From NCBI GenBank assembly GCA_964521955.1, contig CAZFTX010000005.1, forward strand, positions 804-64,803: a DNA stretch of 64,000 nucleotides, read 5' to 3'. Origin of the DNA: an uncultured Candidatus Saccharibacteria bacterium. GTDB lineage: Bacteria; Patescibacteriota; Doudnabacteria; UBA920. Position numbers and translations under genes: made by a program. Shown here in pieces: positions 5,652-55,026 of this stretch (position 1 is the first letter of the stretch; every line of letters starts with the position of its first letter). The notes below the pieces were generated by a model. That model worked only from the letters and a program-made list of their open reading frames with translations, did no database searches and was not told where the DNA came from.

Positions 5652-6179
5652 TTACGGTTTTGGGCTTTTGCTTGGTGTTGACGGCAACAATTCCACAACT
5701 GGACCGTTCGCCTCAATTCTGTTGCAAAGGTCGTCGAGTTTGCTTGCCGTGTGGACAGTTGCTGGTCGGAGCATGGGTCCGAGGCTGGACCCGGTGTAGG
5801 AGCGTTCGCAGGGTTGGGGGACTCCATTCATGGCACACTCCACTTGCCAGAGGGTTCTGCGAAGCTCCTCGCTGAGCGGTTGTTTAGGTGTAGAGGCTGG
5901 TTCAGTGGGTGAAACTAGAACTTTAAGCCATTCTGACGCTTCTTCGGCGTTTGGGACTGACTGCACAGAGCTTTTCTTAAATATGCTTCTTAGTTTGCGG
6001 CACAAACCGTTGTGTTTGGAATGAACCAACACGAACGGCGCCGCCTCTAGTGCTGTAACTGTGTTAGCAGAAACACTGAGTATTTCCGGGTGCCCTAGGT
6101 AAGCTCTCAGGGATTTGCACTGGAAGCTAAAACCAACAACAATTACGGTAGGTCCTTGGTTCATGAATCCTCTTTTCAA
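5652..6179 (-). CDS. hypothetical protein in GC-rich module
   Basis: 175 aa ORF in a ~600 bp block of roughly 55% GC within AT-rich surroundings. A TATAAT and AAGAGGA lie upstream, and a hairpin terminator overlaps the stop (5638..5668). No recognisable domain. Confidence 0.45.
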   Translation of the reverse strand: MKRGFMNQGPTVIVVGFSFQCKSLRAYLGHPEILSVSANTVTALEAAPFVLVHSKHNGLCRKLRSIFKKSSVQSVPNAEEASEWLKVLVSPTEPASTPKQPLSEELRRTLWQVECAMNGVPQPCERSYTGSSLGPMLRPATVHTASKLDDLCNRIEANGPVVELLPSTPSKSPKP

Positions 6180-6260
6180 AAAGGATTATAGCATATACAA
6201 AATAACTTTACTTAGGGTTTAGGAACAGGCTTATTTTTTGGCGTTGGTAGGGAAAAAGGG

Positions 6261-6289
6261 TTGATTTTTCTGCTGTATTATGTTAGAAT
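6261..6289 (+). promoter_or_regulatory. sigma70-like promoter upstream of tRNA-Glu (TTGATT-17-TAGAAT)
   Basis: Hexamers with 17 nt spacing, ~145 nt upstream of the tRNA. Confidence 0.4.
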
Positions 6290-6434
6290 TTACAAAGTTT
6301 TGAGTTATAAAAAAGACTCCCAAAAATTAGGAGCGTAGTCCCAGGCTAAGTTGGAACGAGCACGGATTTTTGGGAAAAAGGAATACTTTATGCAGACTAA
6401 AAAGAATGGCTTTAATTCTTGAAAGTTGAAATGA

Positions 6435-6509
6435 AGTATGACGCGGCGCTATCGTCTAATGGTTAGGACAAGTGGTTTTCATCCACTAAATCGGGGTTCG
6501 ATTCCCCGT
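6435..6509 (+). tRNA. tRNA-Glu (anticodon UUC), CCA encoded
   Basis: Cloverleaf by hand: acceptor GGCGCUA/UAGCGCU, anticodon stem AGUGG/CCACU with loop UUUUCAU (anticodon UUC), T-arm CGGGG-UUCGAUU-CCCCG, discriminator A and CCA. Confidence 0.85.
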
Positions 6510-6653
6510 AGCGCTACCAACAAAAGTTCCCGACCTTACGTCGGGACTTTTTGTTGGTATGCCGTGAGGTGGAATTCCCCGCCGAAGCGAAGCGTAGGTC
6601 CCGACTTTACGTCGGGGTAGCGCTACCAACAAAAGTTCCCGACCTTGTGTCGG
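6498..6653 (+). repeat. ~47 bp direct repeat of tRNA-Glu 3' end plus terminator hairpin (copies 6498..6545 and 6607..6653), att-site-like
   Basis: GTAGCGCTACCAACAAAAGTTCCCGACCTTACGTCGGGACTTTTTG is repeated with 2 substitutions (TAC to TGT in the loop). A third related hairpin (GGTCCCGACTTTACGTCGGGG) lies between the copies. Confidence 0.7.
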
Positions 6654-6755
6654 GACTTTTTGTATGATTATAATAAAGGTACCTGACACCTTTTCTTTTC
6701 CATTATTATAATAGCGGTCAATTTATTAAAGTGAACATTTAACAACTACGGTTTA

Positions 6756-6980
6756 CTACTCTTGAGAGTTGCCTTGCAGTTCAAACAGCTTGTCGTAATA
6801 GGCCTTGTAATAGGCGCTGTAGTAGGCTCGGTAGTATTCGCTACCATAGCCGCCAACCTCGTTTGCCGCCGCCTCTGCCTGTGCTTCTGCATAAGCGGTA
6901 GCTTGTTGCTCCAACTCCTGTTGGTCTCTGCTCACTTGCTTCCTCCTGTCAGGATTCACCTGAACAAGAAATACTACCAT
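6756..6980 (-). CDS. small Tyr/Ala-rich hypothetical protein
   Basis: 74 aa with the repeat YYRAYYSAYYKAYY; GGAG lies ~10 nt upstream. The region is GC-rich. Weak call. Confidence 0.3.
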   Translation of the reverse strand: MVVFLVQVNPDRRKQVSRDQQELEQQATAYAEAQAEAAANEVGGYGSEYYRAYYSAYYKAYYDKLFELQGNSQE

Positions 6981-10066: not shown

Positions 10067-10095
10067 TTGACATTAGGTGTAATTTAGTGTAAAAT
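10067..10095 (+). promoter_or_regulatory. sigma70-like promoter TTGACA-17-TAAAAT with ~125 nt leader before 10221 gene
   Basis: Consensus-like hexamers with 17 nt spacing; the -35 overlaps a GC-rich hairpin GTCAAGGC-CTAGA-GCCTTGAC. Confidence 0.45.
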
Positions 10096-10220
10096 ACAGG
10101 CGAAAAATATGTAATATATAAATAAAATTTTTATGCGGCATGAAGCCGTTTTCTTTTTGGGGAAATGACTTTTTGCGGCCTAAAGATTTTCGTGGTAAAT
10201 GGCCGACTTAAGGAGGCTGA

Positions 10221-10436
10221 ATGAAGAAGTTGTTCGCGTTGGGAGTAATAGTGGCGTTTCTGCTTTTGTACTATGGGGTGGCAATGCCATGGTTAATGCA
10301 CCTGGACGACGCTCCCCAGTTTGGGGAGTTGCATAAGGTCGCGAACTTTTGGGGGACGGTCATGCTAAGCCTTCTCCCGCTATTGGGAGCGTTGGCGGTG
10401 GTTGCCTGTCGGAAGTTTTACAGGCCAGTGAAGTAA
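10221..10436 (+). CDS. small membrane protein (2 TM), GC-rich module
   Basis: 71 aa; AGGAGG RBS; followed by terminator CCGGACAAC...GCUGUCCGG plus U7 at ~10470..10512. Confidence 0.45.
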   Translation: MKKLFALGVIVAFLLLYYGVAMPWLMHLDDAPQFGELHKVANFWGTVMLSLLPLLGALAVVACRKFYRPVK

Positions 10437-10577
10437 ACCACTCGTTCCCGCTGACCCAATTTGGCAAGTACCGGACAACACGCAAGTTCAAGCGGCTGTC
10501 CGGTTTTTTTATGTTAAGTTGTTGAATATGAATAAAAAAGGTATATAATTGAAATATAAATTAACGAAAGGGGTTTT

Positions 10578-10802
10578 ATGTGGGAAGGTTATCAAGCGTT
10601 GCCGTTGAATCCGCAAACAACCGTCCTGCTAGGTATCCTGGTTATTTGGAGCCTAGTTTGGAAAGGGATTGCTTTGTGGCGAGCGGCACGCAACGGCCAT
10701 AAGGCTTTCTACGTTATAATACTAATTGTAAATACAGTTGGTATTCTAGAAATAATTTACCTTTTAACCAAAGGTAAAAAACAATCTTCAGACATGGTCT
10801 GA
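10578..10802 (+). CDS. small membrane protein (2 TM)
   Basis: 74 aa hydrophobic ORF with Lys-rich tail; AGGGG lies upstream. Confidence 0.4.
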   Translation: MWEGYQALPLNPQTTVLLGILVIWSLVWKGIALWRAARNGHKAFYVIILIVNTVGILEIIYLLTKGKKQSSDMV

Positions 10803-38965: not shown

Positions 38966-39658
38966 CTAGAGCTTGTTGTTGCGTCGACGTCGGTGGAGGA
39001 ACAGCAGGCCTCCGAGACCTGCGCCCATGAGTACGTACGTGCCGGGCTCCGGAACTTCGCCCGGACGTTCATCGCCAAACAGGTACTGAGTGAATGTCAC
39101 AGAGTTGAGCCTTGTTTGACCGTTGCTGCGTACGCGAAGAAGCGTTTGTTCCCATGCTCCGAAAGCGCCGACGTTGTCGCGTAGAAACGTTCCCGCCGCG
39201 TAAGTGTTGTCGTACCAGTGATCCACGGATCCGTCGCCGTGAAGCAGGGTTTCCACCGTATGTGGTGTTCCGGCAACGCGCGGAGTGAGGTCAAAGAACA
39301 CAAACGTTTCAATCGCCGGTGCGTTGCTGTAGCGTTCGTAGCCGAGCAGAGAAGCGCCGAACAAGGATCCGTTTTGTGTACGCGGGTTGAGACCGTTGCT
39401 CAAGTTCTGCTGGAACATGTCGATGTTGGCGTTGGGATTGTCTTCGTAGCTCACCGACGCATAGGTTGAGCCGCTGTTGATGAAGATGCCGACCTCGGTG
39501 TTGGAATTCTGGGTGATGGTGATTGTGCCGTCGCCGTTGTCGGTAAACGTGCCGTCGCCGTATGTGGTCCACGTAAGACCACCGAAGTCAATGGTCGCGG
39601 CGTTGGCCGAGAGGGCCGCAACGGTCGCGAGAATCAAGAGAACGAGAAATTGCTTCAT
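38966..39658 (-). CDS. PEP-CTERM domain secreted protein
   Basis: 230 aa; signal peptide, Gly/Thr/Asn-rich body, C-terminal EVPEPGTYVLMGAGLGGLLFLHRRRRNNKL; GGAGG RBS; GC-rich codons. Confidence 0.8.
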   Translation of the reverse strand: MKQFLVLLILATVAALSANAATIDFGGLTWTTYGDGTFTDNGDGTITITQNSNTEVGIFINSGSTYASVSYEDNPNANIDMFQQNLSNGLNPRTQNGSLFGASLLGYERYSNAPAIETFVFFDLTPRVAGTPHTVETLLHGDGSVDHWYDNTYAAGTFLRDNVGAFGAWEQTLLRVRSNGQTRLNSVTFTQYLFGDERPGEVPEPGTYVLMGAGLGGLLFLHRRRRNNKL

Positions 39659-40194: not shown

Positions 40195-41520
40195 TCAAGC
40201 CTGCGCGGCTCGGGTGTCAATCACTTGTTGCGCGGCCTCCGAAGGGGGCGTGCTTGCGATGAGCCAGACTCGGCCGTTGGGATTGCTTGAATAACGGATG
40301 TTCAAACCCCTCCAGCCAAGACTTTCCATGCTCCTCCGAAGATCTTGGGCCTGTTCCAAGCCTTGTTTGCCGGCGCCGATTTGGACTTCTGCCGCGCCAG
40401 TTGTTCGGTCAATGTTCGGTTCTCGGTCAATCCCTTGTGAAAGCAGAAACTCCCTGAACTTTCCAACGAGCTCGTTTGGGGAATTCGCTTCAATTGGGAT
40501 AACCTTGTTTATTCTGGAAGGCAGTTTCGCCTGTTGTGGTCGCTTGTTTTCCTTGGAGTGTGCCCAAAGGCAGTATCCGAGTATAACAAGCAGAAAGAAG
40601 CAAGCGCCGCCCACTATTGAGCCAACCAGAATGAGGTTGTTGGTGGGTTGTTTTGTTACCACTTTCGCTTCGCCCTTCGCGAGACCGTTGCTGTCCTTGG
40701 CCGGAGCTTCTTCACAGTCAGCCGATGCGGCTGACATGATGTCAAAGCTCATGGAACCGTTTGGACTATTTGGCCTTTGGAAGCAGGGCATTTTGCTTTG
40801 CGGAATGGGCAGGGGCCCACGCCGGACAGCAGTTTGCGCAGGCGGGGGAGGAAGGGCTTTCGCAACTTGGGGTTTTGCCTGTTTCTGAACTGGTTGTTCA
40901 ACCTTAGGCGTTACTTTGGTTGCTATTTGCTTTTTCTCTTTTGCCGCCGTCGGCACTTTTGCCACTCCTGCCGGTTTCGGGGTTGCTTTCACCGCGACCT
41001 TGGCCGGAGCCTTGGGCGCGAGTGGTTTCGGAGCTGTTGCGACAACAGCCTTGGGGGCTGGAGCGGATTTCTTCACGGGAGTCGGGACAGCGGCCTTGGC
41101 CACTGCCGGCGACTTTTTGGCTGGGGTTCTGGTTTGGAGTGCGGGCTTCTTCGTGCCAATTGGTTCGGGCACGGGAGTCATTGCAGCCACGCCACTGTTG
41201 ACGTCGCTGACCACGTACTTGCCGGTTGGCATGTAGCGCCAAACTTCGGCGCGACAATTGCCGACAAACGCAACCTCGCTTCCAACTTCCGCCTTCGGGA
41301 AGTTGACTCGGATGAGCTTTTGGTTTTCCGGCGTTACCGTGACAGTGAACACCAGCTTTTCAACTTCGCAAAAGGCTCCGCGGAACATGCGAGCGAAGTG
41401 GCTCGCAGTTTGTCCGGGTGCCAAAATCACTTCCTGTGGCAACTTAACTTTCTCTTCTTGGGCAAGCCCAAGAGAGGAGAGAGCTGCTGCAAGAAGCAAA
41501 AGCCGAGATGTGTTAAACAT
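40195..41520 (-). CDS. Pro/Ala/Lys-rich membrane protein (signal peptide, PAK low-complexity region, TM, C-terminal globular domain)
   Basis: 441 aa; MFNTSRLLLLAAALSSLGLA signal, ~120 aa of AP/AK/PK repeats, TM LILVGSIVGGACFFLLVILGYCLW, then a 110 aa C-terminal domain. GC-rich. Confidence 0.55.
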   Translation of the reverse strand: MFNTSRLLLLAAALSSLGLAQEEKVKLPQEVILAPGQTASHFARMFRGAFCEVEKLVFTVTVTPENQKLIRVNFPKAEVGSEVAFVGNCRAEVWRYMPTGKYVVSDVNSGVAAMTPVPEPIGTKKPALQTRTPAKKSPAVAKAAVPTPVKKSAPAPKAVVATAPKPLAPKAPAKVAVKATPKPAGVAKVPTAAKEKKQIATKVTPKVEQPVQKQAKPQVAKALPPPPAQTAVRRGPLPIPQSKMPCFQRPNSPNGSMSFDIMSAASADCEEAPAKDSNGLAKGEAKVVTKQPTNNLILVGSIVGGACFFLLVILGYCLWAHSKENKRPQQAKLPSRINKVIPIEANSPNELVGKFREFLLSQGIDREPNIDRTTGAAEVQIGAGKQGLEQAQDLRRSMESLGWRGLNIRYSSNPNGRVWLIASTPPSEAAQQVIDTRAAQA

Positions 41521-41971: not shown

Positions 41972-42146
41972 TTATATATTACGATGTTTGGTGCTACAGG
42001 GGTCGATTTTTTGATCCCTGTTTGTACGTTGTGTGTACACACTACGGTAGTTGGACAGCACTGCGCTGTCACAACTTACCGTCAACCGCGGTTCTTTAGA
42101 CCCCACCTTGAAGAGGGTGGGACAAATCCACGGAGGATTGAGTACC

Positions 42147-42854
42147 ATGAAGTTTAAGAGGAAGAAGCCCCAGACCATTGTGTCATGGGGTAAAATGATG
42201 TTTGCGATCGCTCTGATTGCCATGTTGGCCGGCCTCACGGCCGCGCCGGCGAACGCGGCGGTGATTGGACCAGGTGGATCTGGAGTGGCGTCTGATTTCG
42301 GAGTCATTTCCGGCACCGTCTTGGTGGAAACTACTGTGCTCGGGGTCGTGGGTGTTCCCACGGCAACCTTTACCGGTGATTACGCATACTCTGTGATTGA
42401 CGAGGGTGGCGGGATTCTCGCGTTTCTGTACCAGTTCAGCAACTGGGCCAGTTCCGATGATCCGGTGCTTCGCACGACTCATAGCTCATTCACCGGGTTC
42501 GTTACCGACGTTGGCTACACCACAGTCGTACCGGTTGGTACCACGGTGTTCAGCGCCGGCGGCGTAGCCTCGACGGATGTCTCGCGCAGTGGCAGTGGCA
42601 GTGTGGTTCGGTATGACTATGATGCGGGTGTGGATCCGGGTACGTTTACCTACATCATGGCCATTCGTGTCACTGCTGATTACTGGTCGCGTGGTGGTTC
42701 ATTCACGGCTCAAGATGGAAGCGTGGGAGCCGTGACGGCAGCTAATCCCGAATCGGTTCCCGAGCCCGGCACGTACGCGCTCATGGGCGGCGGCCTGTTG
42801 GCCCTCGCTGCCCTGCGTCGGCGCAACAAGGGAGGTGACGACACCTCCAACTAG
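42147..42854 (+). CDS. PEP-CTERM domain secreted protein
   Basis: Start at MKFKRKKP (GGAGG RBS; the ORF-track 42051 start was rejected). Signal/TM, Gly/Ser/Thr/Val-rich body, C-terminal SVPEPGTYALMGGGLLALAALRRRNKGGDDTSN. Confidence 0.75.
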   Translation: MKFKRKKPQTIVSWGKMMFAIALIAMLAGLTAAPANAAVIGPGGSGVASDFGVISGTVLVETTVLGVVGVPTATFTGDYAYSVIDEGGGILAFLYQFSNWASSDDPVLRTTHSSFTGFVTDVGYTTVVPVGTTVFSAGGVASTDVSRSGSGSVVRYDYDAGVDPGTFTYIMAIRVTADYWSRGGSFTAQDGSVGAVTAANPESVPEPGTYALMGGGLLALAALRRRNKGGDDTSN

Positions 42855-47251: not shown

Positions 47252-48712
47252 ATGAAAATAAAAAATTTGTTTAAAAGGTCGCAAGGAGGATATACCACTG
47301 CAGAAATGCTAATTGCTTTTTTCATTATGACCGTGGCTATTTCCGGAGTTAGTACTATTGCTTTTGGAAACCAGTCAGTTTCTGTGGACACTGAAAAAAA
47401 CAGTGAAGCTTTGCGTATTGCCCAAGCTGTAGCAGAAGACAAAAGAGCCATGGCAAAAACTAACTTCGACAGTTTACAAACTTCAGACTGCGACACTGCC
47501 GGGTATGAGTGTGAAGTTTTGGTTTCCAGTCCTCAGCAGAACTTAAAACAAATTACCACAACGGTTTCTTGGGTAGAAGGTAACAGGCCGCAAAGCGTGG
47601 TTTTAAAAAGCCGAGTGGCAAACTTAGAGGAAGAAGAAGCAACCGGCGGAACCGAAGGTGGTGGTAACAGAGAAAGTTCAGGGGGTGACGACGGAGGAGA
47701 TGATGGTACGGGAAGTGGTGGGGGTAGTGGAGGAAGTAATGGTTTTTGTCCAACGGTTAATAATATTTTCTCTCAAGACACTACAGCTAGTTTGGCTGGT
47801 AAAACTACCGGATTGGACGTTGTTAATAATTTAATATACCTAAGTTTAGATACGAGTGGAGATAATACTTTAAGTGATTTTGTTATTCTCGATTCAAATA
47901 ATTTAAATAAAATTGTAAAAATTTCAGAACTCAAAACTCAATCCGGAGGCTTAAATGCTATAGATATTGCAAATGGGTACGCGTATACTGTGGGGAAAAA
48001 GTTGGGAGCACAGTTAGAAATAATAAATGTTTCGAGTTCTACTAGTCCAAGTTTAGAAAGTTTTTTAGATTTATCATCCGCTGGGCTTAGTATATTTTAT
48101 AGGGACAATAAAGTTTATGCAGGTACCGAAAACAATCCCAGTGGCCCAGAGTTTTATGTAATAGATGTGACTGATTCCAGTTTGCCTTCGGTTTTAGGTA
48201 GTTTTGAAATTGGTGGGGGAGTTAATCAAATTGTGGTTCGGGGAAATACAGCCTATCTTGCAACTACTCACGGAGCTAAGGATATTGTAGTATTAGACGT
48301 TTCAAATCCTACCAGTATTTTAGAGACAAGAGTTTACAATAATTCCTATGCTGCAGCTGCACAGAGTTTGTATTTCTATGATAGTAAAATTTTTGCAGGT
48401 TCAAATCCTAACCTATTAGTCTTGGACCCAAGCACTAATCCAGTGAATTTAACTGCTTCAAATTCCATGCCTATGAATATTAATGATATTGTTATTTCTG
48501 GAAACTTAGGTTTTCTTGGAACAGATTTGGCAAATAAACGTTTTCAAATATGGGATATGAGTAATTTATCCGACATGAAATATTGCACAAGTTCAGATAA
48601 TATTAGTCCTTTGTTTAACGCTCCGGTTACAGGGATAATTTATCAAAACGGTTTGGCTTATGTTGCCATGTATAAAAATGGAATATCGGTTCGTGTTGTA
48701 AAGTTGAATTAA
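47252..48712 (+). CDS. pilin-like protein fused to Gly/Asp-rich linker and LVIVD-repeat beta-propeller-like domain
   Basis: 486 aa; prepilin-like N-terminus SQGG/YTTAEMLIAFFIM (Glu+5), then an EEEATGGTEGGGN...GSGGGSGGSNG linker. Repeated motifs follow: LEIINVSSSTSP, FYVIDVTDSSLP, DIVVLDVSNPTS, LLVLDPSTNPV, FQIWDMSNLSD. Confidence 0.55.
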   Translation: MKIKNLFKRSQGGYTTAEMLIAFFIMTVAISGVSTIAFGNQSVSVDTEKNSEALRIAQAVAEDKRAMAKTNFDSLQTSDCDTAGYECEVLVSSPQQNLKQITTTVSWVEGNRPQSVVLKSRVANLEEEEATGGTEGGGNRESSGGDDGGDDGTGSGGGSGGSNGFCPTVNNIFSQDTTASLAGKTTGLDVVNNLIYLSLDTSGDNTLSDFVILDSNNLNKIVKISELKTQSGGLNAIDIANGYAYTVGKKLGAQLEIINVSSSTSPSLESFLDLSSAGLSIFYRDNKVYAGTENNPSGPEFYVIDVTDSSLPSVLGSFEIGGGVNQIVVRGNTAYLATTHGAKDIVVLDVSNPTSILETRVYNNSYAAAAQSLYFYDSKIFAGSNPNLLVLDPSTNPVNLTASNSMPMNINDIVISGNLGFLGTDLANKRFQIWDMSNLSDMKYCTSSDNISPLFNAPVTGIIYQNGLAYVAMYKNGISVRVVKLN

Positions 48713-50324: not shown

Positions 50325-50993
50325 ATGCGCATGGTTTATTTGCGCTTTCGTGTAGTTTTGCTCGGAGCTCTTCTGGGCATCTTGCCAATTTCTCAGGCCT
50401 TCGGAGCCACGTTGACGTACGATTCTCTCACGGGAAGCACGGAAACGATTGGAACTTGGGGAGCACAAGCAACTGAGAAGTATGGTCAGACGACTACTGT
50501 ACCAGTCACACACACGCTTCTGACATCGTTTGCTTTTTCAATGAATTTCAACGGCGACAGCGCCGCGAGTGCAAACCTTCAGGTGCATGTGTACGGCTGG
50601 GACGGCAGCGCGCCAACAGGGGCGGCCCTTTGGTCCAGTGGCGTGTTGAACGCTTCCGGCGCCGGGTTCATTGACCAGTCTTTGAACATCGGTCTGAATT
50701 TGGTGGGTGGCCAGAACATTGTCTTGTACGTTGAGGCTCTTTCTGGTGACATTGCCGTATTCAAACGGCCGGGAATTTCACAACCGCTCATTGGGGTCGA
50801 CGTTTTTCCCGGAGGGTTTGTATTCCAGAATGGCATTGAGCCGTGGGTTCAAGATTTCATGGGTACTGACACCGACCTGGGCGTCATTCTCACATGGGAT
50901 CAAACGGAGGGCGGCGGCGGGGAAGTTCCTGAACCTTCTACGGTCGCTCTTGTCGGCGCTGGTGTTGCGGCGTTGTTGTTTCGCCGGCGCTAA
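50325..50993 (+). CDS. PEP-CTERM domain secreted protein embedded in pilus locus
   Basis: 222 aa (start may be the second ATG at 50331); signal peptide, then a C-terminal GGGGEVPEPSTVALVGAGVAALLFRRR; roughly 55% GC. Confidence 0.8.
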   Translation: MRMVYLRFRVVLLGALLGILPISQAFGATLTYDSLTGSTETIGTWGAQATEKYGQTTTVPVTHTLLTSFAFSMNFNGDSAASANLQVHVYGWDGSAPTGAALWSSGVLNASGAGFIDQSLNIGLNLVGGQNIVLYVEALSGDIAVFKRPGISQPLIGVDVFPGGFVFQNGIEPWVQDFMGTDTDLGVILTWDQTEGGGGEVPEPSTVALVGAGVAALLFRRR

Positions 50994-51227
50994 CGGTAAG
51001 CTCGCCACTTCGTGGCATCGTGGTCCGGGACCTGTACTCTTTAGGGGGTATGGGTTCCGGGCTGTTTTTTTAAACACAATATCAACAATGCGGAAATTTT
51101 CAATATTTATTCTCTTATTTAAGCCACTTTTTATTTGAAATTTTGTGTAGAATTTAAGTATTTTGTTTGCTAAACTTAAGGAAGTAAAAAATACTGTTTA
51201 GAAATAAAACTAAATATAAAAATATAT

Positions 51228-52361
51228 ATGAAAGTTAAAGTAAAGGTTGTTACCAACAATATTAATAGTAATAAAAAGTTTTTGAAAAAAAATTTGCTTT
51301 ATAAAGCAACAGCGTTTTTATGTATAGTTACTTTGGTTTTTTCTTTAATGTCTTCTAAAGACAAAGTTGTTGCAGCTGACTATCCTACTGCTACTTTGAT
51401 TGTGAAGAAAATTGTTGAAAACAATAATGGCGGTACCAAAGTTTCCTCTGACTTTACTATGTATGTAATTGGTTTGTCCGGAGTTCCTGGACCTGTAGCA
51501 ACACCTGACACTTATTCAACATCTTTTCCTGGTGACGCTTTTGGAACGCCAATCCTTTTAGGAGTAGGGAACTATCAAGTCACAGAAACTGTTTTGCCGG
51601 GTTATGCTGTAACTTACTCTGACGAATGTAGGAGTTCTACAGGCGGAATTCTAGAAGAAAACGTTGAAAGAACTTGTATAGTTACCAACTCAGACATTCC
51701 TGCAAAATTAAACGTAGTAGTGCAGGTGTTAAACGATAACGGTGGAAGTAAAGTGCCAGGTGACTTTAATGTTGTTGTAACTGGCGGTAATGCCAACCCA
51801 AGAAATTTTCCCGGAGATGAAAGCGGTACAGAAGTAGTCATGCACTCCGGAGTATATTCTGTAGACGTAGATCCTGACAGTAATTACGACATTACTTATT
51901 CTCCTGAATGTGCGGACAGTTTAGCTTTAGCTGAAAGTGTGACTTGTACTGTGAATATAAACGACATTGAACAAACAGGTGGTGGAGGTACTGGTGGTGA
52001 TGGGGAAGACGAAGAAGAAACACCCCCTCCTGGTGGTGGCGGTGGAAATTCGAGCGGTGGTGGCGCAGGTGGCCCAACTCCAACAGGTCCAGGATCTTCG
52101 GGAGGTGGCGGAACTTCTTCCGGCGGCAGCGGAATTCCAACCCCACCAACTCAGCCTAGTGACGGTGAAGTTTTAGGAGTTTCTACTACCAATGTCCCAA
52201 GTATTTCCATGCCCACAGACGGTGGTATACAGCCCGAGGGACAAGTATTAGGAGCTTCAACTGAATTGCCAAGAACCGGTACAAATGCTATGAGTGTTGT
52301 TATTTCCTTACTTGCTGGACTTTTGGTTTTTGTTCCCAAAATGAAGTTAAAGTTCAAGTAA
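51228..52361 (+). CDS. LPXTG-type cell-wall-anchor protein with two tandem beta-sandwich (prealbumin/Cna-B-like) domains
   Basis: 377 aa; N-terminal TM/signal; repeats ATLIVKKIVENNNGGTKVSSDFTMYV and AKLNVVVQVLNDNGGSKVPGDFNVVV; Gly/Ser/Pro-rich stalk. The C-terminus is LPRTG followed by a hydrophobic stretch and KMKLKFK. Confidence 0.75.
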   Translation: MKVKVKVVTNNINSNKKFLKKNLLYKATAFLCIVTLVFSLMSSKDKVVAADYPTATLIVKKIVENNNGGTKVSSDFTMYVIGLSGVPGPVATPDTYSTSFPGDAFGTPILLGVGNYQVTETVLPGYAVTYSDECRSSTGGILEENVERTCIVTNSDIPAKLNVVVQVLNDNGGSKVPGDFNVVVTGGNANPRNFPGDESGTEVVMHSGVYSVDVDPDSNYDITYSPECADSLALAESVTCTVNINDIEQTGGGGTGGDGEDEEETPPPGGGGGNSSGGGAGGPTPTGPGSSGGGGTSSGGSGIPTPPTQPSDGEVLGVSTTNVPSISMPTDGGIQPEGQVLGASTELPRTGTNAMSVVISLLAGLLVFVPKMKLKFK

Positions 52362-52416
52362 TTTTAAAAATTCCGGGTCGCCAGTTTAGGCACTCGGAAT
52401 TTTTGTTTTTATCAAA

Positions 52417-53001
52417 ATGAATAAGTTTAAAAAACCATTATTAGCAATTTTAGTTTTTACTATGGTTTTTATTGCGCTTAACTTTTCTTTTTTTAAGAAC
52501 AAATTTAACTTTACTTTTGAAGGTAGAAAAAGCATATACAAATCCCCGGCAGTTATACCCGTGATAAAAAAAGTTACGCCGAATTTTTTAACGATTGAAA
52601 CTTTAAACATAAAAGCCCCTATAGTTTATGTGGGAGAAAATAAAGAAGAAGTTTTTCAAACTGCCTTGCAAACCGGTGTAGTGCATTTTCCAGGGACTGC
52701 AAAACCCGGAGAATATGGAAATGTTTACATACTAGGACATAGTTCAGACTATGCTTGGGCTAAAGGGGAGTTTAAAACCGTTTTTGCAAGTTTACCTGAG
52801 ATTCAAAAAGGTGTGGAAATTACTGTGAGTGATTCTGAAGGCAACCCTTTTACTTACACAGTTACAGGCACTAAAATTGTTGCCCCGGAGGAGCTTTCGG
52901 TTTTAGACCAAGACTTTAAAAAGAAAACTTTAACTTTGCAAACTTCTTACCCCCTAGGCACTGCTTTAAAACGTTTTATAGTAACTGCCGAATTGAAATA
53001 A
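52417..53001 (+). CDS. sortase-family protein with Ser in place of the catalytic Cys
   Basis: 194 aa; N-terminal TM; VYILGHSS (His motif); KKTLTLQTSYP aligns with sortase QLTLITCDDY but has TCT (Ser) where TGT (Cys) is expected; KRFIVTAEL carries the conserved Arg. Confidence 0.65.
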   Translation: MNKFKKPLLAILVFTMVFIALNFSFFKNKFNFTFEGRKSIYKSPAVIPVIKKVTPNFLTIETLNIKAPIVYVGENKEEVFQTALQTGVVHFPGTAKPGEYGNVYILGHSSDYAWAKGEFKTVFASLPEIQKGVEITVSDSEGNPFTYTVTGTKIVAPEELSVLDQDFKKKTLTLQTSYPLGTALKRFIVTAELK

Positions 53002-53081: not shown

Positions 53082-53573
53082 ATGACAAAACTTTCTCGGA
53101 GGTCTTTAGACCCTAGTCAGTTGGGCTACTTAGTTAATAACTTGTGGTCGGCTTTTACTTTAATGAGCACCAAGGAAGACATTCGTCTTTTGTTTAAAGA
53201 TGTATTAACTCAGACTGAAATAAGAATGATTGCTAAACGTTTAGAAATAGTGAGGAGACTTTTAAAACAAGAGTCTTATGAGAATATTCAGAAAGAATTA
53301 AAAGTAACTTCCGGTACTATTAATGCAATAGGCAATATTTTAAAATTGAGAGGCGATGGTTTTCGTAAGGTATGTTTAAAGTTGGACGGTTTGGAAGAAA
53401 AATACATTAAACAACAAAGAGAAATAACAAAAAATCTTGAGAATCCATTTAGGAAGAAAACTCAAAGAAAAACATTATTGGGAGAAGTAATTAAGGCAGG
53501 TATTAGTGCCTTAGATAAAAAGATTATTCAGACTCAAAAGCATAATTCTGCCAAAAAAGTATTGCCTTCCTAA
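53082..53573 (+). CDS. TrpR/YerC-YecD family helix-turn-helix protein
   Basis: 163 aa; LFKDVLTQTEIRMIAKRLEIVRRLLKQESYENIQKELKVTSGTINAIGNILK matches the YerC/Trp-repressor-like fold; Lys-rich C-terminal tail. Confidence 0.6.
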   Translation: MTKLSRRSLDPSQLGYLVNNLWSAFTLMSTKEDIRLLFKDVLTQTEIRMIAKRLEIVRRLLKQESYENIQKELKVTSGTINAIGNILKLRGDGFRKVCLKLDGLEEKYIKQQREITKNLENPFRKKTQRKTLLGEVIKAGISALDKKIIQTQKHNSAKKVLPS

Positions 53574-53610: not shown

Positions 53611-55026
53611 TTGGGGATTTTTATGAAGAAGGTAAGAATTAAAGTAGAAAGTTACTTAGGGGGTTATGTGGCTATGGAAATGATTTTAGCCTTGTTTGTT
53701 TTTGCTCTCTTGGTTCCGGCTGCAGTGGTTTTAATTTTTTCAAACCAATTTGCAATTATAGACACTGAAAACAACCATACAAGTTTAATTTTAGCTAAAG
53801 AAGTTTTTGAAGAAACTCAAGCAGTTGGTAGGAGTAATTTTAGTTCACTCTCACCTTTAGCGGAGATTCCCGAAGGTGATTTTTTCAAAGACAATTATTT
53901 AGAAGAAATTTCAGACTATGCCTTTTTTTCTGACAGTCGTTCCTGGCATAAAAACTATACTTTAAAAAAAGTTGAACTGCCAACCGCATTTATAGACTGG
54001 AAAAACGCTCTAGGAAAAGACAGTTGTGCTTTAAGTTTTTCCGACAGTTGGGGATCACCGGTTTTAAAAGGAAGTATGAATTTGGGTTTAGGAAACGAAG
54101 CTTTAGATTTAGATGTTCATAATAAAAAAGTTTATATTACCGCTAATTTCTCTCCGGTCTCACAGAGAGATTTTTTTATAGTTGAGGTTACAGATCAAAA
54201 TACTCCTTTTCTTATTTCTTCGCTTCATTCTGGACCTGGGTTATCTGCTGTGCATGTTGCAGGTGATTATGCTTATGTTGCAAATGCAACCCTGACCAAT
54301 CAGTTTCAAGTAATAAGTATTGCAGATAACAATAATCCTATTTTAGTTAAGACTTACAAAATACCGGGGGTTACAGGCACCGGTGGAGCTGGTGTTGGTA
54401 AAAGTATTTTTTATTTAAATAAAAAAATTTATATTGGACTTACAAAAGCCACCGGCCCAGAGTTTCATATTCTTGATGTTGCAATTCCAAACTCGCCGGT
54501 GTTGCTTGGTGCTTTTGAAACTAACACAGTTGTTAGCAGTATTTTTGTAAAAGATGGACTCGCTTATCTGGCAACTGGGGAAGGGGATCAGTTTAGAATT
54601 TTGGACGTAAGTAATCCGAGTAATATTTTTGAACTTGGTAGTTTAGGTTGGCTTAGCCAGTCAGGCCAAAGTGTTACTGTTTTAGGTAATCAAGTAGTTT
54701 TTGGAAGAGCAGGAGGACTTTCTAACTCAGGGCAGCATGAACTTTTTTTGTTAGATGTTAAAAACAAAACATTACCCACATCAGTTTTTTCTTCAGATTT
54801 AAATTTTAGTATTAGGGATATTTTTTGGAGAGATGGATTGGTGTTTTTAGCGACTAACAAAGCTGGGGCGGAATTTCAAGTGTTTGAAAAGTTGGGTAAT
54901 GTATTGGTTTTTAAATCAGGCTTGGATTTAGGCAGTCCGGCTACAGCTTTAGACTGTGAAGATGAAAGCATATTTGTGCTTTCAGAAAATGGTAAATTGA
55001 GCATACTTAATCCGGGTTCTTATTGA
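53611..55026 (+). CDS. pilin-like protein fused to LVIVD-repeat beta-propeller-like domain (paralog of 47252..48712)
   Basis: 471 aa; prepilin-like SYLGG/YVAMEMILALFVFALLV (Glu+5); repeats FFIVEVTDQNTP, FQVISIADNNNP, FHILDVAIPNSP, FRILDVSNPSN, LFLLDVKNKTLP. Confidence 0.55.
   Translation: MGIFMKKVRIKVESYLGGYVAMEMILALFVFALLVPAAVVLIFSNQFAIIDTENNHTSLILAKEVFEETQAVGRSNFSSLSPLAEIPEGDFFKDNYLEEISDYAFFSDSRSWHKNYTLKKVELPTAFIDWKNALGKDSCALSFSDSWGSPVLKGSMNLGLGNEALDLDVHNKKVYITANFSPVSQRDFFIVEVTDQNTPFLISSLHSGPGLSAVHVAGDYAYVANATLTNQFQVISIADNNNPILVKTYKIPGVTGTGGAGVGKSIFYLNKKIYIGLTKATGPEFHILDVAIPNSPVLLGAFETNTVVSSIFVKDGLAYLATGEGDQFRILDVSNPSNIFELGSLGWLSQSGQSVTVLGNQVVFGRAGGLSNSGQHELFLLDVKNKTLPTSVFSSDLNFSIRDIFWRDGLVFLATNKAGAEFQVFEKLGNVLVFKSGLDLGSPATALDCEDESIFVLSENGKLSILNPGSY

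Follow-up and report, generated by a model that had tools for sequence, protein, structure and literature searches.

A sortase clade with serine at the catalytic-cysteine position, encoded next to LPRTG surface proteins in Patescibacteria

Sortases are textbook cysteine transpeptidases, and the cysteine is treated as a defining property of the family, in inhibitor design as well as in annotation filters. We analyzed a 64-kb stretch of DNA from a Doudnabacteria-like genome (contig CAZFTX010000005.1; the whole stretch of 64,000 nucleotides is referred to as the window), in which the gene for an LPRTG surface protein is directly followed by that for a 194-residue sortase with serine, Ser177, at the position of the catalytic cysteine. 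An exchange of this kind is established for the PA clan, where serine-dependent chymotrypsin-like and cysteine-dependent picornain 3C-like enzymes differ in their nucleophile while the fold and the catalytic histidine are kept across the lineage; fold and reaction are both different from those of sortases. To our knowledge, a swap between cysteine and serine as nucleophile has not been described for the sortase fold. Neither a Ser-type sortase nor an LPRTG/VLGA..E signal in this context was found in the full-text literature searched, although absence there is no proof. Sortases have been reported to be common in the candidate phyla radiation (CPR), in a study that does not mention their nucleophile (Méheust et al., 2019; PMC6744442).

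The best matches of the Ser-type sortase in sequence (phmmer) and structure (Foldseek) are sortases of classes D, C and E, namely Clostridium perfringens SrtD (4D70), Actinomyces oris SrtC2 (8T28), Streptococcus agalactiae SrtC1 and Streptomyces avermitilis SrtE (5GO5). All share the β-barrel and the sequence T-x-P-x-G...R that extends past the nucleophile. The protein studied here differs from them by serine in place of cysteine, by GHSS instead of GHR, by the lack of a DP[FWY] lid and by an LPRTG signal preceded by VLGA..E. Encoding the enzyme in an operon with a dedicated substrate is a trait shared with class B, C and D systems. Compared with Staphylococcus aureus SrtA (His120-Cys184-Arg197; LPXTG), the positions of histidine, nucleophile and arginine, the threonine before the nucleophile and the LPXTG-hydrophobic-basic layout of the substrate are the same. 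However, the serine of the S. aureus enzyme variant C184S is engineered and is reported to impair the enzyme strongly (PMC4827206), whereas here serine is the fixed natural state.

A sortase fold without cysteine

The sortase gene and the codons of its active-site residues are located as follows, with counts taken from a comparison of 235 sequences of the Ser clade with 29 sequences of a Cys-type sister group:

52417..53001, + strand: Ser-type sortase gene, 194 residues; membrane anchor at the N-terminus (about residues 5-35), β-barrel of the sortase type at residues 57-193
52738..52740, + strand: CAT codon of His108, the catalytic histidine of GHSS, aligned with the catalytic histidine of solved sortases (4d70, 8t28) and invariant in the Ser clade (235/235) and the Cys sisters (29/29)
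52939..52941, + strand: CAA codon of Gln175, which precedes Ser177 by two residues on its strand and is its clade-specific partner; Gln in 234/235 Ser-clade sequences versus Ile, Met, Val or Phe in 29/29 Cys sisters
52945..52947, + strand: TCT codon of Ser177 at the sortase catalytic-cysteine position, as judged from alignments, clade conservation, codon counts and independent assemblies
52972..52974, + strand: CGT codon of Arg186, the conserved sortase arginine on the last strand; Arg in 233/235 Ser-clade sequences and in 29/29 Cys sisters

Fold, domain model, histidine, arginine, membrane anchor and cognate substrate assign the 194-residue protein to the sortase superfamily (MEROPS C60). It matches the Pfam model Sortase (PF04203) from position 1 to 124 of the 125 model positions (E = 4.4e-25; 88.3 bits at a cut-off of 26.6) and also exceeds the cut-off of the generic sortase model TIGR01076 (51.5 versus 39.35). 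Comparison with solved sortases by phmmer yielded matches with 4d70 (E = 1.3e-08) and 8t28 (E = 1.3e-07), and 3rcc was also aligned. In these alignments, ILGHSS lies on IAGHRN of 4d70, KRFIV falls on the Arg strand of all three structures, and the nucleophile strand LTLQTSYPLGT is placed on LTLVTCTPLGI of 8t28 and MTIVTC of 4d70. An earlier note, made from the DNA sequence of the locus, had based the relationship on precisely the His motif ILGHS, the active-site strand and the Arg strand, and it is borne out by phmmer and Pfam.

Since the alignments with solved sortases place TLTLQTSYPLG on TLVTCTPLG and TIVTC, Ser177 occupies the column of the catalytic cysteine. As proposed earlier, its codon differs from a cysteine codon by a single C>G transversion (TCT versus TGT). 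Only the position had to be corrected by one codon: nucleotides 52942-52944, originally assigned to the serine, read ACT and encode Thr176, while TCT is found at 52945-52947. A catalytic cysteine in a TLxTC motif is thus the superfamily feature that fails, its place being taken by Ser177. Another cysteine cannot act as the nucleophile, because the whole translated protein does not contain a single one; a catalytic cysteine elsewhere in the protein, an objection raised in the same note, was rejected on this ground, and profile as well as structure put Ser177 at the nucleophile position.

The AlphaFold2 model, calculated with 116 homologs, has a mean pLDDT of 87.6 and shows the strand order of sortases, with His108 just past the strand formed by residues 101-106, while the strands of residues 170-180 and 183-193 carry Ser177 and Arg186, respectively. 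All top matches of a Foldseek comparison with the PDB are sortases, belonging to classes D, C, A and E (E = 2e-12 to 1e-9). The hydrophobic residues 7-26 (PLLAILVFTMVFIALNFSFF) and two model helices (residues 5-21 and 23-35) precede the barrel and point to an N-terminal membrane anchor, which would place the catalytic domain outside the cytoplasm.

Assignment to one of the named sortase classes (A-F, GN) was rejected, as all NCBIfam class models remain far below their cut-offs: SrtD (LPxTATN-specific) scores 62.2 against 140, class D 60.8 against 165, class E 44.8 against 160, class C 44.1 against 160, class F 39.7 against 166 and class GN 33.7 against 158. The same applies to other members of the Ser clade and to the Cys sisters, which stay below every named-class cut-off (30-88 bits versus 140-166). 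A class C or pilus-type enzyme was likewise rejected, because the sortase lacks the DP[FWY] lid motif (it contains no "DP" dipeptide) and the substrate lacks a pilin-motif lysine. On reading the translation of the 377-residue substrate, the pilin motif YPK (with the lysine of YPKN) was not found and only ADYPTA is present.

Conservation of the serine and the cysteine-type sister group

Given that TCT is only one transversion away from TGT, the serine might be taken for a sequencing or assembly error or for a recent inactivating mutation of a normal cysteine sortase. However, a 194-residue product of identical sequence and with the same TCT codon is present in four independent assemblies (SRR16481186, SRR16481187, JGI 3300045398 and JGI 3300045330); the copy in JGI 3300045398 carries three synonymous or other nucleotide differences and keeps TCT. 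A 99% variant of the gene occurs in three further runs, again with TCT, which brings the number of independent assemblies to seven. In a word-indexed search, all 120 homologs, 45-99% identical to the query, had serine within an invariant LQTS[YW]P.GT motif. As the word index could favor sequences that share the motif (QTSYP), an index-free profile search was run as a repeat against 1.84 billion cluster representatives. The number of matches was 13,240 for E ≤ 1e-3, with 853 of them reaching E ≤ 1e-30, and among the best 150 of these matches 117 had serine and 29 had cysteine. All of the 235 collected clade members, which share about 45-55% identity with each other, have serine at position 177, so that the lineage-wide conservation for which the earlier note proposed a check is indeed observed.

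The codons used for this residue are equally informative. At 86 occurrences of the motif in the fetched loci and the window, serine is encoded by TCG (23), TCT (23), TCA (18), TCC (18), AGC (3) and AGT (1). The use of all six serine codons, from both codon classes, implies long purifying selection for serine itself. The pattern of the genome-collection scan was the Ser motif, so that its hits have serine by construction; it served for context, codon usage and taxonomy and not for serine conservation. The same TCT across assemblies, the fixation of serine in 235 of 235 sequences and the use of all six serine codons refute the error that the earlier note had listed among three options, and an artifact or a recent loss of TGT has next to no probability left.

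The Cys-type relatives recovered by the profile search score lower (E = 1e-49 to 1e-42) and read TL[IM]TC[WTYV]P[VI]GT...R, with the same GHSS His motif. These as yet unclassified cysteine sortases from CPR-sized contigs (e.g. P0222, P0230 and P0242) are the nearest evolutionary relatives of the Ser clade, the nearest structural ones being classes D, C and E. They are about 44% identical to the Ser-type enzymes over the catalytic domain and have in common with them GNxxxxGHSS, Asn102, Tyr147, Thr176, Pro179, Gly181 and Arg186, the length and the N-terminal anchor, but differ in having cysteine as the nucleophile and Ile, Met or Val instead of Gln two residues before it. In three loci examined, on contigs of 0.3-1.0 Mb, and unlike in the Ser-type loci, an LPXTG gene is not adjacent. 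In locus L087, a Cys-sister sortase (6001-6768) is accompanied at a distance of 3.3 kb by a second, more distant cysteine sortase with the motif LTLYTCTP (10078-10602), which shows that a CPR genome can carry more than one sortase.

Near-invariant in both groups are Asn102, Gly107-His108-Ser109-Ser110, Tyr147, Thr176, Pro179, Gly181 and Arg186. With regard to the catalytic site, the Ser clade has retained His108 in 235, Thr176 in 232 and Arg186 in 233 of its 235 sequences; including the Cys sisters, His108 is present in 264 of 264. Five columns, on the other hand, switch together between the Ser clade and the Cys group: Gln175 (Ile, Met, Val or Phe in the Cys group), Ser177, Tyr or Trp178 (mostly Thr, Trp or Val), Ala183 (Asn, Ser or Asp) and Tyr104 (Val or Phe). 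Position 175 precedes the nucleophile by two residues within one strand and hence faces the same way. From the alignment and the SrtA numbering, its counterpart in S. aureus SrtA is Ile182, a residue that lines the substrate groove. When the switch columns were masked, all 29 Cys sequences fell on one side of a single branch in a neighbor-joining tree, together with eight divergent Ser sequences; this tree is crude and unrooted, and it is compatible with a single switch from cysteine to serine. A Ser-His-Asp triad involving Asp111 was considered and rejected: Asp111 is invariant in the nearest 115 homologs, but Asp is found in only 122 of 151 sequences from the representative search and is less than 90% conserved in the Ser clade.

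The retention of these residues bears on the second option of the earlier note, a catalytically dead pseudo-sortase. Such a protein would bind LPRTG as a chaperone, retention factor or regulator, and any cleavage would be carried out by a cysteine sortase encoded elsewhere. A second, active sortase is possible in these organisms, since the sortase family is present in more than half of CPR genomes (PMC6744442) and Cys-type relatives reside on CPR-sized contigs, and the reported strong impairment of S. aureus SrtA C184S (PMC4827206) fits a protein devoid of activity. A pseudoenzyme would, however, be expected to lose its active-site residues, whereas His108, Thr176 and Arg186 are conserved to 99-100% and Ser177 to 100% in the 235 sequences. 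The use of all six serine codons and the co-varying substitutions in the active site also argue against it. Moreover, with a mean identity of 0.52 the Ser clade is not below the Cys group (0.48), so that, in a sampling that is biased around the query, no relaxed constraint is visible.

Linkage to LPRTG surface proteins and the predicted reaction

The gene upstream of the sortase encodes its predicted substrate:

51228..52361, + strand: LPRTG surface-protein gene, predicted sortase substrate, 377 residues, from translation of the open reading frame (ORF)
52167..52190, + strand: first copy of the xVLG..T/D motif, EVLGVSTT, without LPRTG after it
52242..52280, + strand: extended sorting motif QVLGASTE-LPRTG, of which LPRTG alone is 52266-52280
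52281..52358, + strand: membrane-spanning hydrophobic segment of 19 residues and basic tail KMKLKFK

The 377-residue protein is composed, in this order, of a Sec-type signal peptide (about residues 1-50, with a basic N-terminus, a hydrophobic core and VVA-AD), two SpaA_2/prealbumin-like domains, a Gly/Ser/Pro-rich linker and a C-terminal sorting signal. The Pfam model SpaA_2 (PF19403) is matched with E = 4.5e-09 in two stretches, the best of which comprises residues 54-129, and each of the SpaA_2-like repeats contains a pair of cysteines (134/150 and 228/240). ORF translation confirms the end previously described as LPRTG, a hydrophobic segment and KMKLKFK: the C-terminus reads ...GQVLGASTE-LPRTG-TNAMSVVISLLAGLLVFVP-KMKLKFK, in which the threonine of LPRTG is Thr350.

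This arrangement was followed through 83 non-redundant loci, drawn from 80 species-representative genomes, three genomes found by exact-protein look-up and the window. In 68 of the 83, a same-strand ORF ending in LPxTG, a transmembrane segment and a basic tail lies directly before the Ser-sortase gene. The pairing of LPRTG protein and Ser-sortase is not due to chance, because the gene order recurs in this number of loci from distant genomes. According to their taxon labels, the Ser-sortase loci belong mostly to Doudnabacteria, Uhrbacteria, Kerfeldbacteria, Veblenbacteria, Parcubacteria/Paceibacter and "Patescibacteria group", with a few implausible automatic labels. The sorting signals of the 68 loci conform to the consensus P-x-V-L-G-A-[TS]-[TD]-E-L-P-R-T-G-[LM]-P, in which L, P, T and G are invariant partly because the search pattern required them, whereas the rest was not imposed by it; the X position is Arg in 62 of the 68 and Glu precedes the motif in 40. 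In three distant genomes, the gene directly upstream of the Ser-sortase encodes a SpaA_2/CLIPPER-type protein of 647-1062 residues that ends in VLGA[TV]DE-LPRTG or AQ-LPRTG, followed again by a transmembrane segment and a basic tail.

In 34 of the 68 substrates, the motif xVLG[ADV][ST][TD]E is duplicated 20-30 residues upstream without LPRTG (e.g. L003, L004, L006 and L015-L017), and the protein in the window has the two copies as well (52167-52190 and 52242-52265). Possible roles of the additional copy are those of a second recognition element or of a site for processing or modification.

Cassette duplication and gene fusion also occur. Locus L025 (4597-7980) contains tandem cassettes that consist of an LPRTG protein, a Ser-sortase, an LPRTG protein of 112 residues and a second Ser-sortase. 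Three independent representatives of 50%-identity clusters, P0128 (517 residues), P0134 (673 residues) and P0135 (919 residues), are single ORFs in which ...ELPRTG, a transmembrane segment, a basic loop and a second transmembrane segment precede the sortase domain. Such an arrangement is topologically coherent and links the enzyme with its substrate; if these ORFs are genuine fusions and not missed stop codons, they would be candidates for self-processing. A search of the six-frame ORFs of the 64-kb window with hidden Markov models and regular expressions revealed neither a second sortase nor another convincing LPXTG-type ORF, and a Cys sortase was not found in the window or within 6 kb on either side of any Ser-sortase locus.

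Operon linkage, cassette duplication and fusions are typical of enzyme-substrate pairs and are further arguments against the pseudo-sortase, which we regard as unlikely. Catalysis by Ser177 is favored because serine is absolutely conserved despite codon turnover, histidine, threonine and arginine are retained, the active site has been remodeled in a coordinated manner, and operon linkage, duplication and fusion connect the protein with a substrate that has a conserved signal of its own. Among the three options of the earlier note, error is thus refuted and a dead protein disfavored by the conserved His108, Thr176 and Arg186, while a serine nucleophile is best supported, by way of comparison. 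In the Doudnabacteria-like genome studied here, the two genes probably form a display cassette in which a dedicated sortase with a serine nucleophile would anchor the SpaA-like surface protein encoded in the same operon.

The sortase fold, the equivalence of the residues, their conservation, the linkage of the two genes and the conserved signal are established by these comparisons; catalysis by serine, an acyl-enzyme and the identity of the acceptor are what we infer, and a reaction cycle can be put forward. After export by Sec, the substrate would remain in the membrane through its C-terminal transmembrane segment and basic tail, and its LPRTG motif would be bound by the sortase domain; a predicted peptide substrate of the catalytic domain (residues about 50-194) would be, for example, QVLGASTELPRTGTN. 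Activated by His108 as general base and acid, Ser177 would attack the Thr-Gly bond. The acyl-enzyme formed in this way would be an oxy-ester instead of the thioester of other sortases, and Arg186 would stabilize the substrate or the oxyanion. The clade-specific residues Gln175, Tyr104 and Tyr178 would remodel the site, Gln175 and Tyr104 being candidates for the extra activation that serine needs. Finally, the intermediate would be resolved by an amine, for which a cell-wall precursor is the most likely source, and the protein would become attached to the envelope.

Several points weigh against this proposal. Oxy-esters favor aminolysis over hydrolysis less than thioesters do, and transpeptidation is therefore not guaranteed. 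In S. aureus SrtA, the activity of C184S "decreased dramatically" (PMC4827206), which means that a bare exchange of cysteine for serine fails in a canonical sortase. It is also possible that a canonical cysteine sortase elsewhere in these genomes is the real processor of LPRTG, and the part of the signal conservation that was imposed by the search pattern has to be discounted.

The chemistry of the oxy-ester bears the possibility of yet another function, that of an active serine hydrolase that clips LPRTG and frees the SpaA-like protein from its membrane anchor, resulting in shedding or maturation without attachment to the wall. The conservation evidence applies to it in the same way as to an anchoring enzyme, an acceptor was not identified in this analysis, and oxy-ester acyl-enzymes generally lean more to hydrolysis than thioesters. 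Serine D,D-transpeptidases, however, achieve efficient transpeptidation via serine acyl-enzymes, and the transmembrane segment, the basic tail and the long Gly/Ser/Pro-rich linker of the substrate are the architecture of wall-spanning anchored proteins. We consider a purely hydrolytic role improbable.

Returning to the anchoring enzyme, extension of this reading to the whole clade appears, on balance, somewhat better founded than its opposite: the LQTS[YW]PxGTA proteins would constitute a widespread family of Ser-His-Arg sortases that act on VLGAxxE-LPRTG via an oxy-ester acyl-enzyme, serve as dedicated anchoring enzymes in many Patescibacteria and represent a new catalytic type that arose once from a cysteine-dependent ancestor along with Gln at position −2. 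If this is true, the conserved Ser clade would show that a second nucleophile is compatible with the sortase fold, in parallel to the duality of serine and cysteine in the chymotrypsin-like clan, and the co-varying Gln175, Tyr104, Tyr/Trp178 and Ala183 are a guide to how the active site was rebuilt. The enzyme would provide a probable display route for large SpaA-like adhesins in many CPR/Patescibacteria, ultra-small bacteria that are almost entirely uncultured and in which SpaA-like surface proteins are prime candidates for host-cell attachment. With respect to protein engineering, it could be a thiol-free, oxidation-insensitive ligase, and LPRTG together with the VLGA..E motif may be orthogonal to LPETG sortagging. 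Annotation pipelines that require cysteine would wrongly label such sortases as inactive.

Regulatory elements and neighboring genes

Two potential regulatory elements were noted at the cassette:

51135..51164, + strand: tentative sigma-70-like promoter candidate upstream of the LPRTG-protein gene, a pattern match with 9 of 12 positions in a consensus scan
52365..52411, + strand: intergenic hairpin followed by a U-run between the substrate and sortase genes, resembling an intrinsic terminator or attenuator, from RNA folding

Between the candidate promoter and the PEP-CTERM gene that precedes it, there is a terminator-like hairpin (51020-51065). The spacer between the substrate and sortase genes is 55 nt long, and its hairpin, which was missed by a consensus terminator scan, is highly stable (ΔG −23.2 kcal/mol; z = −6.2; none of 200 shuffled sequences was equally stable). 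A strong hairpin with a U-run in this short spacer suggests that the substrate mRNA is abundant and that read-through from it into the enzyme gene is attenuated. Directly after the sortase gene, a TrpR/YerC-like helix-turn-helix protein is encoded (53082-53573, + strand; Pfam Trp_repressor, E = 8.5e-12). It is missing in three 99%-related strains (L089-L091), in which the sequence corresponding to position 52982 of the window joins that at about 53654, and it may represent a regulator of the cassette that varies between strains.

Further afield, genes for proteins with a CAP (cysteine-rich secretory protein) domain recur beside the cassette in loci L001-L005 and near the Cys-sister sortase of locus L086. 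In several genomes (L009, L027 and L034), the Ser-sortase gene is found directly behind uvrA or, in L034, directly in front of hrcA, without an adjacent substrate. In the window, pilus genes, PEP-CTERM islands and the LPRTG gene are situated between uvrA and the sortase gene (region 35310-56424). The comparison suggests an old uvrA-sortase-hrcA neighborhood that has accumulated genes for surface proteins. The window also encodes UvrC, UvrA, a set of type IV pilus proteins (PilB, PilC and pseudopilins), LVIVD-repeat proteins and HrcA-GrpE-DnaK-DnaJ. Its DnaK shares 82-83% identity with DnaK proteins assigned to Candidatus Doudnabacteria or Patescibacteria group and is 100% identical to a protein from a contig of 68 kb. 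Two of the LVIVD-repeat proteins are paralogs of about 470-490 residues (47252-48712 and 53611-55026, both + strand) that combine a prepilin-like hydrophobic N-terminus with LVIVD β-propeller repeats; their genes flank the pseudopilin genes and the sortase cassette, and the proteins may be pilus-tip or other surface adhesins.

PEP-CTERM tails (Pfam PF07589, E about 1e-6 each) form the ends of three ORFs, 38966-39658 (− strand), 42051-42854 (+ strand) and 50325-50993 (+ strand). PEP-CTERM/exosortase signals are a feature of diderm bacteria, and an exosortase was not matched among the window ORFs scanned against Pfam. Together with an ORF of 441 residues without Pfam match (40195-41520, − strand), the three ORFs are compositionally foreign, with a GC content of 0.54-0.58 and a GC content at third codon positions of 0.56-0.69 compared to 0.22-0.40 for their neighbors, and each of them is a single-gene island between AT-rich spacers. 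The gene starting at 50325 is present in an independent assembly that is 100% identical (L092) and absent from a 97%-related strain (L090), which identifies it as a real strain-variable insertion and not as a chimera.

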